From an uncultured virus (IMG/VR IMGVR_UViG_3300025786_000100) (lineage: Duplodnaviria; Heunggongvirae; Uroviricota; Caudoviricetes): DNA of 64,000 nucleotides. The notes under the pieces were generated by a model. The model had not been told where the DNA came from. It searched no databases and saw only the letters and a list, made by a program, of their open reading frames with translations. Where the stretch lies: the IMG/VR virus record IMGVR_UViG_3300025786_000100. The stretch is one strand, 5' to 3'. Positions 2,779 through 51,633 of the stretch are shown here, one piece after another (positions within the stretch are counted from its first letter, which is position 1; each line of letters begins with the position of its first letter). Made by a program: the position numbers and the translations under genes.

Positions 2779-2987
2779 AGACCAAGCAAGCGCGCGAACA
2801 GAAACACCGCGAGCAGGCCGAGGCTCGGGCGTCGTTCATCGCCAAGGAGGTCCTCGGCATCGAGACGCTCGAAGAGCGCAGGAGCGACCGGCTCGACTTC
2901 CATGAAGTCAGCGTTAACGGGCTGCGCGAGGCGTTGGCCCTTGCCTACCAGATGGGACGCAGCGAGGCGCGAGGAGGGAAGCGATGA
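2775..2987 (+). CDS. DUF6900-like protein
   Basis: LGIETLEERRSDRLDFHEVSVNGLREALALAY resembles the DUF6900 pattern; ATGA coupling on both sides. Confidence 0.7.
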   Translation: MKTKQAREQKHREQAEARASFIAKEVLGIETLEERRSDRLDFHEVSVNGLREALALAYQMGRSEARGGKR

Positions 2988-3241
2988 ATCCAATACCCGT
3001 AAAGCCGACGAAAAGGAAGGACTGGGCGAACTACATTAGCCCCGAAGATCAGGAGCAGACCCGGGGGGAACTCTGCTACCGCATCAGCCACCGCTTGGAT
3101 GCGGTGGTCGACCGCAAGGGCGAGGTCGCCCTGCTTTTGCATGAAGGCGACGAGTACCAGGCCAATGTGGTCTTGAGCGACAAGGCCCGGGCGAAGCTGG
3201 CCTATGTGCTGCTCAAGGCCAGGGGCAAGGAGGGCAAATGA
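2984..3241 (+). CDS. Hypothetical phage protein
   Basis: RBS and ATGA coupling. Confidence 0.65.
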   Translation: MNPIPVKPTKRKDWANYISPEDQEQTRGELCYRISHRLDAVVDRKGEVALLLHEGDEYQANVVLSDKARAKLAYVLLKARGKEGK

Positions 3242-45153: not shown

Positions 45154-48100
45154 CGTGCTCGGTCCCCATCATCGTTGTGCTGGTCCGAGTTGCCATGCGC
45201 TCCTCCATTTCCGAACAGCGACTCAAACCAATCGGGTGATTCGCCGCGAGAGGGGTCGAAACTCTCGCAGGTCGCGGGCGATTCCCAAGCGATCTCGCAT
45301 CCCATCAGGTCGCGGACCCTTGCCCGGAAGTACGGGGTATCGGCCGCAAGGATGGCGGTGGACCAGGGCGACGCGCCGCCCTGCTTTCTGGATCGCTTTT
45401 GGCGGAATCTGAAAAGGCCCAAACTCCAAGACAAGGTAGTCTTGACTTGTGGGCCTTTTCGGATCAGATGTATTTTCCTGTCGATTTCGTGTTTTGCGGC
45501 CTTGGTGGAGGCGAATAGATCGGGCCATCGATCGGCCAAAATCCGGGGGACCAAGGGCAGCGTGCCCGCGCCGCGCATGTACGCCTGGCCGAGCCTGCTG
45601 ACCGCGCGGCCGACCAGGATATCTCTAAAGCTCGCGAGCCTGTCCACATCCAGTCCAGCGGCAGCTTGCTCAAGATGTAGACCTCCTTTGCCGTGTTCGT
45701 GTAGACCAGCCGGATGCGGTCTACGGCCTGGACCGATTCGCGCTCTCGCTTAAGCTCGAGGACGCGTTGAACCCGGGGATCGGGGTGCGTATGTACCCGA
45801 GCACCGGCCTTGTTTCCGTTCTTGATCCGATAGCCGCGCAGAGTCTCTACATACTCGCCTGGAAGGCTCAGCGGCTCGGGATCGTCGTCCCAGATCGCTC
45901 GGGCGAGCCCTTCGATATCGCGAGCACGCGGCTGCTCGCGGCCGATCATCAAGACCGCCTCATGGTGCTTCCAGTCGTCCACGCCTCGGACGCGGCCGAA
46001 GTGCGCTATCGTCGCGCCCTTCCATTCGCAACACAGGGGCAGCTTCTCGTCCCTCTCCCCCGTGATGGCGCGGCGAACGGGCTTGGCGCAGATGACGAAC
46101 AGCCGGGCGCTTCGCGCAAGTTTTTCGATGAGACTCTTGATCTGCGCGATCCGTTTGGCCGCCTGAGCAGCCAGTTTCGGCGGCGCGCCGGGAAATCCGA
46201 TCAGCGACCTGCGGGAAAACGAGGAGCTGTGGCATTGCGTCACTACCGCGTTCCGTGATACGGAGATCGCCACGTGCTCAAGCGGTTCGCCGAAAAGCCT
46301 TCGGTTGATCTCGTCGTCGGCGTCCGCATCGATCAGGAGTAGCGGCTTGTACTTGCCCGCCAGGACCTTCTGCCGCCATCGGACGAAGATCCGATTCTGG
46401 CGCTCTGTCTTGCCGTTGACCGTCACCGCATCGTTGCGCCGGAGCTCGACGGCGTGCGAGCCCGGACGCTTGAGCGCGACCTCATTGGCGAGCTGCCGCA
46501 GAAGGAGCGCGATCTTCTTGCGCTCGGACTCCTCGAGCGCGGCCAGACGCTCCACCGCCTCGCCCTCGGGCATATCGGGGGTCACGCCCGTGTCCCCGTC
46601 CTCCCGCCCTTCGGCCGCTTCCGCGGCCCGCGCGAGGATTTCCCCGTCTAGGCCCTGCGCCCTCGCCGCCTCGAGGAGCGGCTTGTCCTCAGAGAGCGCC
46701 TTGCGAACGCGGTCGAGGCAATCCGCCGACTCGCCCTCGGCCCAGGAGGGCGTCTCGGCCAGGCGGTCCGGGGCGAAGGCAAGCTCCCCTGCCAGCGTTT
46801 CCACGACCGACTCGTCGACGATCACCATGTTCGCCGCCGGGAAGCCCGACGGCATGGGCAGGTGAAGGTACTGGTGTGACCATATCCTTACCGCCGGTCC
46901 GCGGTCGTTCCACTGTTTGATCCAGGGGCAGTGGTCGTAGTGCTCGCATGTCCCCGCGCCGGACCTGCACAGCGTCTTGAAGACGTTTAGCCCTAGCCGA
47001 CTGGCCAGGTCCGCCGCGTCGGGTTTGCGGCACATCGTCTTGGGCTCGCGAGGCCCGCGCTCTTCGGTCGCCTCGGCCAGCCTGCCACGCATGACGCGCA
47101 CCTCGGGACCCGGCGCAAATCGGGGGTCGAAGGAAAGCTCGACGATCCGTTGGGCCAAACGCTCGCCTAGGTCCAAGGTCGGGACGAAGATCGATATGTG
47201 CAAGTCCCTGAGCTTCGGGCGGGACACGATTTCCTGGACGACGGCCTCGGTCTTTCCAATCCCCGCCACGGCCTGCACCGCGAGCCGCGGGGCCGCGCGT
47301 AGATCGGCGATGCCGTACTTCTCCTTGACCTCGGCGCGCCAAGCGTCGGCGATCTCCCGCGGCGTCCGGCGCGCGAACCGAGACTTGTAGCGTCGAGCGA
47401 GCTCTCGTCGGGCCAGCGCCAGGGCCTGCGTCTGGTCGAACCACTGCGAGATGCAAGAGCGCAACTGAGCGGACGCCTCGTCCCTCGCGAGGGGCTTGGA
47501 GAGATATGCGGGCGGCACGCCATCGACGAGTTTCCACGGCGAGAGACGTTGACGGGCGAAGCCCTTGCGCCGGGCTCCCGCGATCATGGCCGACACCTCG
47601 CCGCGAGTCTGCTCTGTCGTCCAGCCGGATAGGGTATAGGGCTCGGCCTTGGCCAGGATGTCCTCGTCGGACCATCCCGCGGCCACGAAACGGGCCACGG
47701 CGCGCAGCATCGGCGCGTGCCAGTTGCCCGGGCCCACCTGGCCAAGAAGGGTCTCGGCGTCCGGTGACGGACGAGAAGGGTCAATCGAATGTCGCCGTCG
47801 GGGAGCCGTTGGATGATTGCTTGGGGGCGCTGGCTTCTCGGCAGGGGAAAAGAAGCGCGCGACCCTGCCCTCCGGATAGGGGCTGCCGTCGGGACGGACG
47901 CTGAAATCTGTGCGCTCCACGACCCGGCCGGGCTTCTTGGGCCAGGCGATGGAGCCCGCGAGACGCATGACGCGGCTGGGATTCGTGACCGTGGTGTCGC
48001 CGCCCATAGCGTCGGCGAGGGCTCGGTTCTGCCGGCGGCACAGGTCGGGATCTGCGACGGGAGTCTCCTGCCGCCACCAGAGTTGCGCGCGAGTGTGGGG

Positions 48101-48487
48101 ATGCTTCCCCGTCACGCCCACGGCGGTAGGTCTAACATCCCGGGTCAGTGTGAGAGCCCGGTTGTAGGCTCCCGCCTCGTCGAGGTCGACATAGAAGGCG
48201 GTCAGAGCGTAGAAGCTCGCGTCGGCCGCGCGCCTGTTGCGCGGCGTGCCGTGCTTGCGCAGCGCCGCGCCGATGTAGACGTTCTGCCCGGCGACGGCGT
48301 TTACGCGCGCGGCGGTTTCTGCCAGGTCGTCTAAGCAGTCGGTCTCGAAGAGCCGGGAGTGGCGCAGCTTGCCGTCTTTCGCGTCGGCCCAGGCCAGCTC
48401 CACGAGGCCGTCCTGGTATTCATCGAGCCAGCCGCCGAAGAGGTGCTCCAAGTGGGCGCGCATGGCCTCAGCGTCGGGCTTCATCAT
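45150..48487 (-). pseudogene. RepB-type primase / helicase-like replication protein with 1-bp frameshift near 45653
   Basis: NVYIG, FYVDLD, SRVMRLAGS; AGIGKT, IVDES; frame moves into ORF 45150-45647 at LPLD|LDVDRL. Confidence 0.7.
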
Positions 48488-51000
48488 CCCATGCGCCTCG
48501 CGGCACAGCGCGCGATTGCCGCGCTCAGAAGGTCTCCCGCCTCGCCCGCGGTAAGTCCCGGAGGCGGGTTGATGCGGAACTTGGTCAGCGCGTTTAGGAC
48601 CTTGCTCGACGCGGGCCTTCTTCGCCAGGAGGCGTTTTCGGACACCAGCGTTTCCGCCCGTGCCCGGCGGATGTAGTCCTCGCCGATGCCCTGTGCTAAC
48701 TCGAGGTCGACCGGCGCGGATTGGAGTTTCTCGTGCGACGCCCAGCGGTCACGAGGCGCGACCTCGACGATCCAGCCGTCCGAGCGCTTCGCCATGAGAA
48801 CCATGCCGTGATTGCCGGCCGAGAGCGCGTAGAGATCGGGCGATGCTTCGACCCAGTGGATGCTCTTGCGCGCGCGGCGCTCCTTGTTGGCCTCTAGGTA
48901 CGACTGGACCAAGTCGTCCTCTCGCGATTTCCGCTCGTCCTGTTCTTCGAGCGCCTCGGTCACCGTTTCGTCGCCCACCTCATCGGGGTTGAGGCCGAAA
49001 AGAGCCGGAGCTTGCACGAGCTTGTGGTCGCTCGACGCCCCGGCCAAGTCGATGATGAGGCAGTCCTCCTTGCCTGGGAAAATCCGCGTCCCGCGGCCGA
49101 TCATCTGGAGGTAGAGCGTCTTGGACCGCGTAGGCCGCGCGATCATGACGGCCGATATGGACGGCTCGTCGAAGCCTTCAGTGAGGACCGCGCAGTTGCA
49201 GACGACCATGGTATCGCCGGTCTTAAGCCGCCGAAGGATGGCCCTGCGCTCGTCGATCGGCGTGTCGCCGGATAGGAACTCGGCTGCGACGCCGCGAGCC
49301 TGGAGGGCATCGGCGGTACGCCGCGCTTGGTCGACGGTGACGGTGAAGATCAGCGCCTTGCGGCCGGGGGCGTGTTCGACATACGCCTCGGCGGTCGCTT
49401 CGGCCGCGCCCGCCCGAAACATGGCCTCGCCGAGTTGGCCCTGGTTGTAGTCAGAACTCACGAGGCCAATGTCGTCGAGGCTGAAGTTTAGTTCGACCTG
49501 CTTGGTGCGCAGATCCACCAGCCAGCCGTCCTTGATGGCCTGAAGGAGCTGAAGTTGGTAGACGATCTCCTGAAACGCGGTATCTAAGCCCAGCCTGTCG
49601 CCGCGTTCGACCGTGGCGGTCAGGCCGAGGGTGGGCGGTCCGCCGTTAAAGCAGCCGAGATGTTCCAGCGTTCGGCGATAGGTGGCCGCGGCCGCGTGAT
49701 GGCAGTTGTGGACGAGGATGCCGCTTACGAAGTAGTTGTGGTTGCGCTCGACTTCGAGATTGTAGACGTGACCACCCGGACACAGCCCGCCAAATTCTTC
49801 GTCACCTCTCGGTTCGAGAACCTCAACACTTTCCACCCGAGCGAATCCAAGAGCTCTTCCTTCTTCCGATCTTGCAGTCTGCGCTCGATGGCGTTGTGGC
49901 TGCCGCCGTCCACTTCTATCGCGATCTTGAGCCCCGGGTGCGCGATATCCAGCTTGTAATGGTTGGGATAGCCGCTCCCCCGGCCGGTCCTCGTCGGAAG
50001 AACAAATTCCGTCTCCCATCCTAATGCGTCGGCAAGGGCGGCTTGCGGTTTCGTAAGTCCACGTCCGTTCCCGCCGCGAGGCAACGGCCCGTGGCCGATC
50101 CTTCTGAGCGTCGCAGACATCTTCTCGCGGACGGACCGGCGGCGCATGGGATTGTTCGCCCGCATTCTCCCGGACGCAAAAATCCTGTTCGTTCTGGACA
50201 TTGTTCGCGAGGATACCGATCTGACATAGGCAGCTTTGCAGGATTCGGAGCAATAGGCCCTTCCCGATCTGCGCAGGAGATCCCGGCGGCGCTTGCCGGT
50301 CACGGCGGTATTCGCCTCGCACCAAGCGCAGTGAGCGATCTTCATCGGATGCCTCCTGTTTCCACAAAACCAGTCCCGAGCCAGGACGTAGACGATAGGC
50401 GGGAACCCAACGTCCGTCCGAGAAGAAGGGATGCCCGGGCGTACAGATCACATCCCCGATACCGGCCACCGTGACTCGGAGCAGACCCGACGGCTTCCGC
50501 TTGAAAACCCGCCTGACGGCTCTTCGCTCAAGCAGGCCGGTCGGACTGACTGACCAGACGAGGTCACCCGGCACGAGTTTCTCTATAGGCTTTCCATCGA
50601 CAAGCGTTCCGGCGGGGAAGCACTCGTCCACCACGACAAGGTCGAAGCCGGAGAGTCCCTCGAGGCGGCCGGGCCTGGAGACAGTCTGTATCGAGCCGAA
50701 CACAACCTGCGCGTCCGTCTCGTCGCGGTCCGCCTTGACCACCCCGGTCTCGGCCGCGGGCCAGACCGCGCGCATCGCGCGCTGCGGCTGCTCGATGAGT
50801 TCGTCGCGGTGAGCGAGCCAGAGCGTTCGCGCGCCGAGCCGCTTGGCGATGGCGAGCCCCGTCACGGTCTTGCCGCATCCCGTGGGCAGGTTGATGATGC
50901 CGCGCCTGAGTCCCGCCTCCCTCTTTCCGTCCCAGGCGACCATCGCGGCCTCTTGGTAGGGTCGAAGGACAATGCCGGTCTCTTTGTGGTTGTTCTGCAT
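48484..51000 (-). CDS. SF2 DEAD/DEAH helicase, intein-containing
   Basis: LRPYQ, LPTGCGKT, VVDE|CHH, GLTAT, TEGFD, QMIGRG. Confidence 0.92.
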   Translation of the reverse strand: MQNNHKETGIVLRPYQEAAMVAWDGKREAGLRRGIINLPTGCGKTVTGLAIAKRLGARTLWLAHRDELIEQPQRAMRAVWPAAETGVVKADRDETDAQVVFGSIQTVSRPGRLEGLSGFDLVVVDECFPAGTLVDGKPIEKLVPGDLVWSVSPTGLLERRAVRRVFKRKPSGLLRVTVAGIGDVICTPGHPFFSDGRWVPAYRLRPGSGLVLWKQEASDEDRSLRLVRGEYRRDRQAPPGSPAQIGKGLLLRILQSCLCQIGILANNVQNEQDFCVRENAGEQSHAPPVRPREDVCDAQKDRPRAVASRRERTWTYETASRPCRRIRMGDGICSSDEDRPGERLSQPLQAGYRAPGAQDRDRSGRRQPQRHRAQTARSEEGRALGFARVESVEVLEPRGDEEFGGLCPGGHVYNLEVERNHNYFVSGILVHNCHHAAAATYRRTLEHLGCFNGGPPTLGLTATVERGDRLGLDTAFQEIVYQLQLLQAIKDGWLVDLRTKQVELNFSLDDIGLVSSDYNQGQLGEAMFRAGAAEATAEAYVEHAPGRKALIFTVTVDQARRTADALQARGVAAEFLSGDTPIDERRAILRRLKTGDTMVVCNCAVLTEGFDEPSISAVMIARPTRSKTLYLQMIGRGTRIFPGKEDCLIIDLAGASSDHKLVQAPALFGLNPDEVGDETVTEALEEQDERKSREDDLVQSYLEANKERRARKSIHWVEASPDLYALSAGNHGMVLMAKRSDGWIVEVAPRDRWASHEKLQSAPVDLELAQGIGEDYIRRARAETLVSENASWRRRPASSKVLNALTKFRINPPPGLTAGEAGDLLSAAIARCAARRMG
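49705..50622 (-). mobile_element. Intein (306 aa) inserted in Walker B (DE/CHH)
   Basis: CFPAGTLV start; CTPGHPF block B; VYNLEVERNHNYFVSGILVHN/C end. Confidence 0.92.
49725..50345 (-). CDS. DUF559/Vsr-like endonuclease nested in another frame of the intein
   Basis: AGGAGG 6 nt before ATG; Zn finger, NUMOD3-like segment, YKLDIA..IAIEVDG.SH..QD..K...L...GWKVLRF. Confidence 0.85.
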   Translation of the reverse strand: MKIAHCAWCEANTAVTGKRRRDLLRRSGRAYCSESCKAAYVRSVSSRTMSRTNRIFASGRMRANNPMRRRSVREKMSATLRRIGHGPLPRGGNGRGLTKPQAALADALGWETEFVLPTRTGRGSGYPNHYKLDIAHPGLKIAIEVDGGSHNAIERRLQDRKKEELLDSLGWKVLRFSNREVTKNLAGCVRVVTSTISKSSATTTTS

Positions 51001-51052
51001 GGGCTTCCCGCCGAAGCCCCGGCCCGGGCAATCCCGGACCGGGGGCCTCTGC

Positions 51053-51633
51053 TCAGAAGGGCACGGGCTCCTCGTCGACCGCGCCGGGGCGCTCCACCTG
51101 CTTGTCCGTGGGCGTCTGCCGCGCGCCCTTGCGCGGCGTGCGCGGGGCCGGCAGTTCATCGGGCTCTGGATGGGACTCGGTGTAGAGTTCCTCGATGAAG
51201 TTCTTCTCGTTGGTGTAGGTCCGCCCGTCTACCACCTTGTCGTAGGTGGTTACGCCCAGAAGGACGCGAAACGATCGGCCCTTAAGGTCCGACTCGGCGA
51301 GCCGGAACTTTCCATCGAAAGGCAGGCCCACGGCGCGCAGGAAGTGAACCGCCATGCCGTGGCCGGGGTTGGCCTTCTCGCCCGAACCGCGCGGTATCCA
51401 GACCACGTTGTGCCAGACGCGCTTACCGAAGTGATCGCCCTCGTCGGCGATCTCGCAGACCATCTTCGTGATCGGCGTGCCCGGGTTCTTGCCGCCGCGT
51501 GTCCGTTCGCCGTCAGAGTGCTCGGCGATTTGGAGGGTGTAGAAGCCGCGCGGGGCGGGGCTGAAGTCCCCTCCGCCAGCTCCCGGGCTGCTCTCCGCGC
51601 CTCTGCGTCCGCGTCGAAGTCGATTTCTGCCAT
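51053..51633 (-). pseudogene. DUF669-like ssDNA-binding protein with 1-bp frameshift near 51599
   Basis: RBS+ATG MAEIDFD is out of frame with DFSPAPRGFY...EEPVPF. Confidence 0.7.

Follow-up and report, generated by a model that had tools for sequence, protein, structure and literature searches.

How can one stretch of a phage gene read as an intein with a middle that does not look like protein and, in another reading frame of the same bases, as an apparently complete nuclease gene? The question is raised by a 64,000 nucleotide stretch of DNA from an uncultured virus of the Caudoviricetes (IMG/VR record IMGVR_UViG_3300025786_000100), referred to here as the window. The original prediction, made from the letters alone, was that an intein at 49705–50622 interrupts a helicase gene and forms a dual-coding selfish element, with a free-standing homing nuclease hidden inside a mini-intein. 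Computational follow-up bears this out. It is very likely that the locus is a mobile intein at the Walker-B motif of a prophage superfamily 2 (SF2) helicase, consisting of a mini-intein and a separately started, out-of-frame homing nuclease of the EDxHD type. The dual-coding reading is adopted because the frame relation is conserved in relatives, stop codons are avoided, conservation is frame-specific and AlphaFold models fit the two frames. Helicase, intein and nuclease open reading frame (ORF) all lie on the minus strand.

A mini-intein and a nuclease gene in two frames

The class-1 intein (49705–50622, 306 residues) was delimited by Pfam and by alignment of the junctions (marked ↓). It starts CFPAGT after VVDE and ends ILVHN before CHH, splitting helicase motif II as VVDE↓C...VHN↓CHH, exactly where it had been proposed. 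The nucleophile Cys1 directly follows the N-extein, and block B (CTPGHP), the C-terminal His-Asn and a +1 Cys (VHN↓C) are all present. Pfam gave Intein_splicing (PF14890) at E 2.5e-9, with 37.6 bits against a cut-off of 35.8, and PT-HINT at E 5.7e-7. The splicing blocks are indeed normal: Cys1, His64, Pro65, Val304, His305 and Asn306 are invariant across 13 related inteins. Splicing is predicted from these motifs and from the Hint fold described below.

AlphaFold modelling of the intein frame folded only residues 1 to 90 and 258 to 306, which form the Hint domain. The N-terminal Hint subdomain (residues 1 to 90, 50353–50622) does not overlap the nuclease ORF and has a pLDDT of 81–96. Residues 91 to 227 and 241 to 255 have a pLDDT below 50, in keeping with the earlier remark that the middle is not protein-like. 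A Foldseek search with the intein model matched 34 PDB chains at E ≤ 0.001, and the matches listed were inteins and other Hint-fold domains, among them mini-intein structures such as that of Mtu RecA (3ifj, E 1e-5, TM to target 0.81). The linker between the two Hint halves (residues 91 to 257, 49852–50352) is predicted to be disordered. According to the models, these approximately 165 codons do not make up a protein domain when read in the host frame, which here runs stop-free through the nuclease gene; the linker is the predicted read-through of that gene.

The nested gene occupies 49725–50345 in the +1 frame of the intein and encodes 206 residues, with a Zn ribbon at the N-terminus, then a helical region and, at the C-terminus, an EDxHD/Vsr-like nuclease domain. 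Its ATG (50345–50343) is preceded, after a 6 nt spacer, by the Shine-Dalgarno (SD)-like sequence AGGAGG (50352–50357); as predicted, the ORF and this signal can be read directly in the sequence. Both frames are stop-free across all 206 nuclease codons, where about 200 had been estimated, and the nuclease frame is also open for 34 codons 5′ of the ATG, giving an open span of 240 codons. The ORF matches DUF559 (PF04480) with E 6.4e-11. That Pfam finds intein and DUF559 domains in different frames of the same DNA supports the two-frame anatomy.

A search for homologues of the nuclease returned 237 at E ≤ 1e-3, mostly called as proteins of about 200 residues. Conservation was examined in 80 of these. 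The Met start is near-invariant (at least 90%) and is directly followed by the Zn ribbon (50238–50330), in which Cys6, Cys9, Cys32 and Cys36 are each at least 90% conserved. The four residues of the catalytic motif E144-x-D146-x3-H150-x8-D159 (49869–49916) are invariant. The four correspond to the EDxHD motif that characterizes the I-Bth0305I family, as defined in the available text of Taylor et al. 2011 (PMC3239194). NPM and GGNG motifs are conserved as well. The Zn finger and the DUF559/Vsr-like domain of the original prediction thus stand. The NUMOD3-like segment does not, as Pfam found no NUMOD family in the nuclease even at E up to 10; the N-terminus is a Zn ribbon and helical region in place of NUMOD motifs.

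The AlphaFold model of the nuclease has a pLDDT of 93.6. Its top Foldseek match was the catalytic domain of I-Bth0305I (3r3p, prob 0.99, E 5.4e-3), with 3hrl (prob 0.99) and Vsr itself (1vsr, prob 0.96) lower in the list, all with E-values above 0.001. A sequence profile of the nuclease matched 3hrl at E 3.5e-10 and 3r3p at E 0.019. Catalytic residues and modelled fold together suggest an EDxHD/Vsr-like enzyme, and homing cleavage activity is predicted. The stop codon had been placed inside intein block F; it lies instead at the boundary of blocks F and G, after HNYF and just before GILVHN, 6.7 codons before the intein ends.

A terminator-like GC-rich hairpin followed by TGGTTTTGTG is found at 50373–50387 (minus strand), about 30 nt 5′ of the nuclease start and within the intein coding region. 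Such hairpins occur at chance level here (1 found, 1.2 expected in a scan of 49600–51300).

Frame layout and selection across relatives

The same arrangement was found in relatives of the element. Viral contigs provided 31 loci, or 23 distinct sequences after collapsing identical copies, the window's own element included. In 30 of the 31 a host ORF of 424 to 1736 codons lies one base upstream of the nuclease frame and the third frame is short; related host ORFs carry Pfam intein domains. The loci span 30 to 66% GC, and at the 30–36% GC of some of them an open alternative frame of 200 codons is unexpected. The sole exception, L029 (2080–3309, plus strand), is a free-standing 410-residue DUF559 protein without intein domains. 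It nevertheless falls within the clade of intein-nested nucleases, on a long branch of unsure placement, and may be an escape from an intein.

A search of genome contigs, which used a single nuclease protein as the query, showed the same frame relation in 7 of 12 loci. The remaining five are four distant free-standing DUF559 genes and one archaeal radical-SAM intein (L043) with its nuclease in frame. Among 40 tblastn hits to phage GenBank records, five were inspected: Vibrio phages CP-T1, 159E43-1b and 1.194.O, Pseudomonas phage MR14 and Corynebacterium phage phi673 (records NC_019457.1, NC_042354.1, MT104474.1, OZ196825.1 and MG592563.1; L057 to L061). In all five the match falls in the +1 frame of an annotated host coding sequence, labelled helicase, 'putative helicase' or 'coil containing protein'.

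A stop codon can arise in the host frame only where a nuclease codon ending in T precedes a codon starting AA, AG or GA. Avoidance of such pairs was assessed in 19 distinct loci, leaving out L007 (a near-copy of L005), L011 and L030 (at contig ends) and L031 (partial). There were 36 to 74 dangerous positions per locus and not one was occupied by a T-ending codon, compared with 17–38% T in the third position elsewhere. The linker in the window has 51 such positions, again with no T-ending codon. When synonymous codons of the nuclease ORF were shuffled, the host frame stayed open in 0 to 62 of 2000 trials per locus, and for the window alone in 2 of 2000. The control frame held 3 to 31 stops per locus.

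Constraint on each frame was measured as pairwise amino-acid identity. Over the nuclease body the identity was 0.39 in the nuclease frame versus 0.21 in the host frame, and the nuclease frame was the higher in 171 of 171 pairs. The nucleotide identities of the codon positions of the nuclease frame ranked 2 > 1 > 3.

The element was then divided into segments and compared across the 13 helicase inteins (78 pairs). In the N-terminal Hint segment the identity was 0.33 in the intein frame and 0.15 in the nuclease frame, the intein frame being higher in 78 of 78 pairs. In the linker these values were 0.19 and 0.40, and the intein frame was higher in none of the 78. Residues 258 to 298 of the C-terminal Hint segment gave 0.39 and 0.44 (intein frame higher in 21 of 78), and block G gave 0.67 and 0.25 (78 of 78). 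Judged by these identities, selection appears clearly to switch along the element, from the intein frame to the nuclease frame, then to both, and back to the intein frame.

The part under selection in both frames is an overlap at 49729–49851, in which the C-terminal Hint strands and block F are co-encoded with the last approximately 40 codons of the nuclease. Translated in the intein frame, one run of bases gives ARVESVEVLE, and translated in the nuclease frame it gives LGWKVLRFSN; across the overlap the intein frame reads ARVESVEVLE...VYNLEVERNHNYF and the nuclease frame LGWKVLRFSNREV.... All three codon positions are conserved (0.53, 0.64 and 0.59), and the intein model has a pLDDT of 73–93 over this region. 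Since the end of the nuclease and the C-terminal Hint strands share their DNA, nuclease and intein would be physically locked together.

Two relatives depart from the usual structure. L031 (2610–3170, plus strand) is a 187-residue mini-intein at DE↓C of an SNF2/methylase protein. Its nuclease has been lost save for a +1-frame remnant of 69 codons at 2911–3117 (...LLGWKVLRFSNKEV...), exactly the part that is co-encoded with the C-terminal Hint strands. In L037 (936–1820, plus strand) the open nuclease frame already begins ahead of the intein and continues for 28 codons past the mapped intein end, and only residues 65 to 178 of the query match; this is possibly a decaying copy or a mis-mapped junction.

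Mobility, expression and rival explanations

If the locus is a homing intein with an independently translated nuclease, ribosomes translating the helicase would read straight through the nuclease gene, and selection would keep the host frame free of stops. The precursor would carry a disordered loop of approximately 165 residues, which would leave as the intein splices itself out and joins the helicase halves. Ribosomes initiating at the internal SD and ATG would make the free 206-residue nuclease. This would cut intein-less alleles with DE(A/C)HH, and recombinational repair would copy the whole intein-plus-nuclease unit into the cut allele, which is homing.

The insertion site is the Walker-B/motif II sequence of ResIII-type helicases, SNF2 ATPases and clamp-loader AAA+ proteins. 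Junctions were mapped in 30 cases: 28 fall at hhhhDE↓C (or S), and the remaining two are shifted two residues towards the C-terminus, to DEGH↓C. Every one of the 30 has C or S as its +1 residue. For L018 the automatic N-terminal junction was wrong and alignment gives DE↓CFAYDT.

The helicase C-extein has 908 homologues at E ≤ 1e-3, and the best 120 of these were checked for Pfam intein families. Only the window's own cluster and one protein with a LAGLIDADG intein contained any. The other 118 of these best 120 are without intein families, are 495–649 residues long and are up to 77% identical. The nearest viral relatives likewise have no intein, with an intact VVDE↓AHHAAA in L049 to L053 (65–71% identity) and VVDE↓CHHAAA in L054. 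The LAGLIDADG case, P0138, is a helicase homologue of 880 residues, 54% identical in the C-extein, that has a different intein (PF05203, PF14528).

In a phylogenetic tree of the nucleases, the intein-nested sequences and L029 form one clade (98/99 support), apart from L043 and from three of the four other free-standing genes. Host type is clustered on this tree, with at least 8 changes (the minimum possible is 5 and the shuffled mean is 18.6), and one SNF2 element, for instance, groups with a helicase element (99/94). A homing element would be expected to show just such a distribution, with the intein absent from close helicase relatives and occupying the same site in distant hosts. We infer from these comparisons that the element is probably mobile by homing.

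Three other relatives have unusual intein arrangements. L043 (2266–4410, plus strand), from a Methanomassiliicoccales metagenome-assembled genome, is a radical-SAM protein intein with an in-frame DUF559/EDxHD-type nuclease (Intein_splicing at residues 105–449, DUF559 at 335–402), which is 32% identical to the window's nuclease over residues 54–181. Direct derivation of this in-frame nuclease from the out-of-frame clade was considered and is unsupported, as L043 sits outside the clade on a very long branch of unsure placement. The host ORFs of L015 (567–4481, plus strand) and L017 (1920–5813, plus strand) each have an apparent second intein, with HNH_3 at residues 388–430 in the former and LAGLIDADG_3 at 1005–1055, inside the second Intein_splicing stretch, in the latter.

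The alternative that survives best, though it is improbable, is that the nested ORF is real but no longer homing: it could be inactive and heading for loss, or have taken on another phage function such as inter-phage competition, with the element inherited vertically. Homing cycles do predict decay, and the remnant in L031 and the aberrant nuclease frame in L037 are consistent with this. Against it, the catalytic E, D, H and D are invariant, the Zn-binding cysteines are intact in the window as well as widely conserved, and the nuclease frame is under purifying selection. Vertical descent also fits poorly with an intein that is missing from the closest helicase relatives, yet is found at the same site in distant hosts.

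A second possibility is that the nuclease is reached by programmed +1 frameshifting from the helicase frame, which would give a fusion of N-extein, N-terminal Hint subdomain and nuclease. The open codons 5′ of the ATG would permit such a fusion, and an SD is missing in some relatives. However, the near-invariant Met with the Zn ribbon directly after it, the prediction of proteins of about 200 residues by gene callers and, in the window, a strong SD at ideal spacing make this very unlikely.

Slightly less probable again is a split ('fractured') intein, in which the N- and C-terminal parts would be two polypeptides that flank a free-standing nuclease gene and splice in trans (Dassa et al. 2009). 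The resemblance is considerable: nuclease family and position between the intein halves agree, and the nuclease gene runs at its 3′ end into the C-intein coding region, as it does in 15 loci, by 6–69 bp, according to the available text of that paper (PMC2677866). In the window, however, the N-intein is not closed by a stop, a non-coding spacer and a separate C-intein start are both lacking, and the host frame is continuous over all 306 residues. It is also open through the entire nuclease gene in 30/31, 7/12 and 5/5 of the viral-contig, genome-contig and phage loci, respectively. This openness is maintained against codon usage, and a split layout would not select for it.

The weakest alternative, a sequencing or assembly artefact in which two compensating indels mask an ordinary in-frame nuclease domain, has a precedent of sorts in the in-frame DUF559 intein of L043 but is practically negligible, as the identical +1 relation is found in related inteins from independent assemblies and isolated phages, the nuclease has its own conserved Met, Zn-ribbon N-terminus and stop, and contigs of four public runs agree with the window without a single substitution or gap. 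Such a pair of indels had been named beforehand as grounds for abandoning the original prediction, and the recurrence of the +1 relation and the indel-free contigs dispose of it. The contigs were compared over 49600–50700 and cover both ends of the nuclease ORF. Three of the four runs are not flagged as a possible source of the window; these leave small holes between their pieces, at 50447–50453 (X12), at 49716–49718 (X14) and at 50400–50428 and 50666–50670 (X16). The two-frame layout is neither chance nor an assembly error.

Several points do weigh against a homing intein with an independently translated nuclease. The window has 66% GC, at which long open alternative frames are commoner, and its probability of an open frame from reference codon usage is only about 0.02, so the case rests on the family and not on the window locus. 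The four runs are groundwater/aquifer metagenomes, perhaps from one campaign and including one flagged as a possible source, and are not fully independent; no RNA run was among those listed. The structural match of the nuclease to 3r3p is above the 0.001 E-value line of Foldseek. A scan of 49600–51300 for sigma-70-like promoters found 0 sites, and no significant RNA structure was found around the nuclease start (z-score 0.14). Not every relative has the strong SD: the inferred starts of L005, L006 and L008 are without a purine-rich SD, and start codons are ambiguous in the nuclease subfamily with a long N-terminus. Finally, a disordered insert of 165 residues may not be compatible with efficient splicing.

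The host ORF (48484–51159) encodes the precursor of an SF2 phage helicase. Pfam gave ResIII (E 1.9e-22) and Helicase_C (E 2.7e-14), with the Intein_splicing/PT-HINT match between the two, and comparison with PHROG 16 'DNA helicase' gave E 5.5e-87. Counted from the first ATG the ORF is 891 residues long. The public gene call (cluster P0121) is 838 residues long and, because of this, the true start is placed at the ATG at 51000, as is probable. From there the N-extein (50623–51000) runs to the Walker-B/motif II sequence ...FDLVVVDE, with its junction set by alignment of the 13 helicase hosts. The C-extein (48484–49704, from the ORF list and the host alignment) begins CHHAAA, and motif II resumes as DE↓CHH.

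The neighbours of the helicase gene are a Sak4-like annealing protein and an exonuclease, and the virus record nearest to the window is classed as a provirus; the setting is thus read as the replication/recombination module of a prophage. The nearest genome, G001, has one identical copy of the element. Directly 3′ of the helicase gene is an ORF of 1007 residues (45464–48487, minus strand) that overlaps the helicase stop by 4 nt and has no PHROG match at E ≤ 0.001.

Known systems and what the element adds

The original prediction suspected that similar nested architectures might have been noted, and they have. A survey of actinobacteriophages (bioRxiv 10.1101/2025.01.02.630785) describes, in its available text, contiguous inteins with antisense LAGLIDADG, antisense Vsr-like and frame-3 endonuclease-VII-like genes, and says that Vsr-like enzymes are otherwise known only with split inteins. 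The available text of a second preprint (bioRxiv 10.64898/2026.09.14.751524) describes a cyanobacterial dnaX intein with a LAGLIDADG gene in the +2 ORF and the same selection pattern, and credits Gorbalenya 1998 with the first proposal. As far as these texts go, the published non-canonical inteins share with the window's element a contiguous intein, an unstructured in-frame middle, a complete endonuclease ORF that is read in another frame from an SD-like start, an endonuclease frame under purifying selection and an origin read as a mini-intein invaded by a free-standing endonuclease gene. The window's element belongs with them, and not with canonical inteins, which have the endonuclease domain in the frame of the splicing domain: a complete nuclease ORF lies in the +1 frame between the splicing blocks, the host frame is stop-free and the constraint is on the nuclease frame. 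It differs from the cases described there in having an EDxHD/Vsr-like nuclease on the same strand in the +1 frame, in its spread over many phage lineages and several families of host gene, and in the co-encoding of its 3′ end with the C-terminal Hint strands.

Fractured genes are the next closest system. In the available text of Dassa et al. 2009 (PMC2677866), a Vsr-like or GIY-YIG endonuclease gene stands free between the halves of a split intein. The nuclease family, the strand, the position between N- and C-terminal splicing parts, the location in phage genes of DNA metabolism and the 3′ overlap with the C-intein are all shared with the window's element. The fractured genes described there have a stop after the N-intein, a spacer of 27–51 nt and a separate start for the C-intein, whereas the host frame in the window is uninterrupted.

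The nuclease itself resembles I-Bth0305I (PMC3239194; PDB 3r3p) in its E-D-H-D residues, its Vsr-like fold and its domain order, with a DNA-binding region at the N-terminus and the nuclease domain at the C-terminus. According to the same available text, I-Bth0305I is found in a group I intron of a phage recA gene and has NUMOD2/HTH motifs, where the window's nuclease has a Zn ribbon and resides in an intein. The sequence similarity between the two is weak, as the profile E-value of 0.019 indicates. The available text on ShiLan (2025, PMC11855218) similarly describes a phage gene whose stop-free, in-frame insertion conceals an endonuclease ORF in a different frame; that insertion has an HNH nuclease and is without a splicing domain, whereas the window's element is a bona fide intein.

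The general design, an intein with an out-of-frame endonuclease, is therefore already published and is not a new principle, and EDxHD nucleases in split inteins are also published. No account of an EDxHD gene lying out of frame on the same strand of a contiguous intein turned up in a literature search that did not extend to the supplements of the two preprints, which possibly list such cases. Three features set the element apart: its EDxHD nuclease is on the same strand, the 3′ end of the nuclease gene overlaps and is interlocked with the Hint domain, and a Walker-B target recurs from one host family to another.

We tentatively consider a wider reading, which is possible though doubtful: all such elements may come from one old composite of an EDxHD gene and a mini-intein, hopping among P-loop NTPase genes (SF2 helicases, SNF2 ATPases and clamp loaders) by way of DNA encoding the Walker-B sequence hhhhDE↓xH. 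In such a composite the last strand and helix of the nuclease and the C-terminal Hint strands would share approximately 120 nt, so that neither could be lost cleanly, and the retention in L031 of exactly the co-encoded piece fits this interlocking. If there was one old composite, the element would be the contiguous intermediate that is absent from the model of Dassa et al., between invasion by a free-standing endonuclease and split 'fractured' inteins. Such an element would, in addition, offer a natural setting in which to study how an overlap of 200 codons is kept up by selection.

Irrespective of origin, the family is a large and testable natural case of a long same-strand overlap, with approximately 200 codons held open purely by avoiding one class of codon pairs at 30–66% GC. 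There are consequences for annotation: the nuclease gene is unannotated in all five published phage records inspected, and the 'middle' of such an intein should not be modelled as a domain. The element links three known arrangements of endonuclease and intein, in which the endonuclease stands free between split halves, is out of frame or is in frame, and this bears on how inteins acquire homing enzymes. The recurrent DE↓C site at Walker-B suggests that the nuclease is aimed at a near-universal NTPase motif, and this may explain the jumps between host genes.

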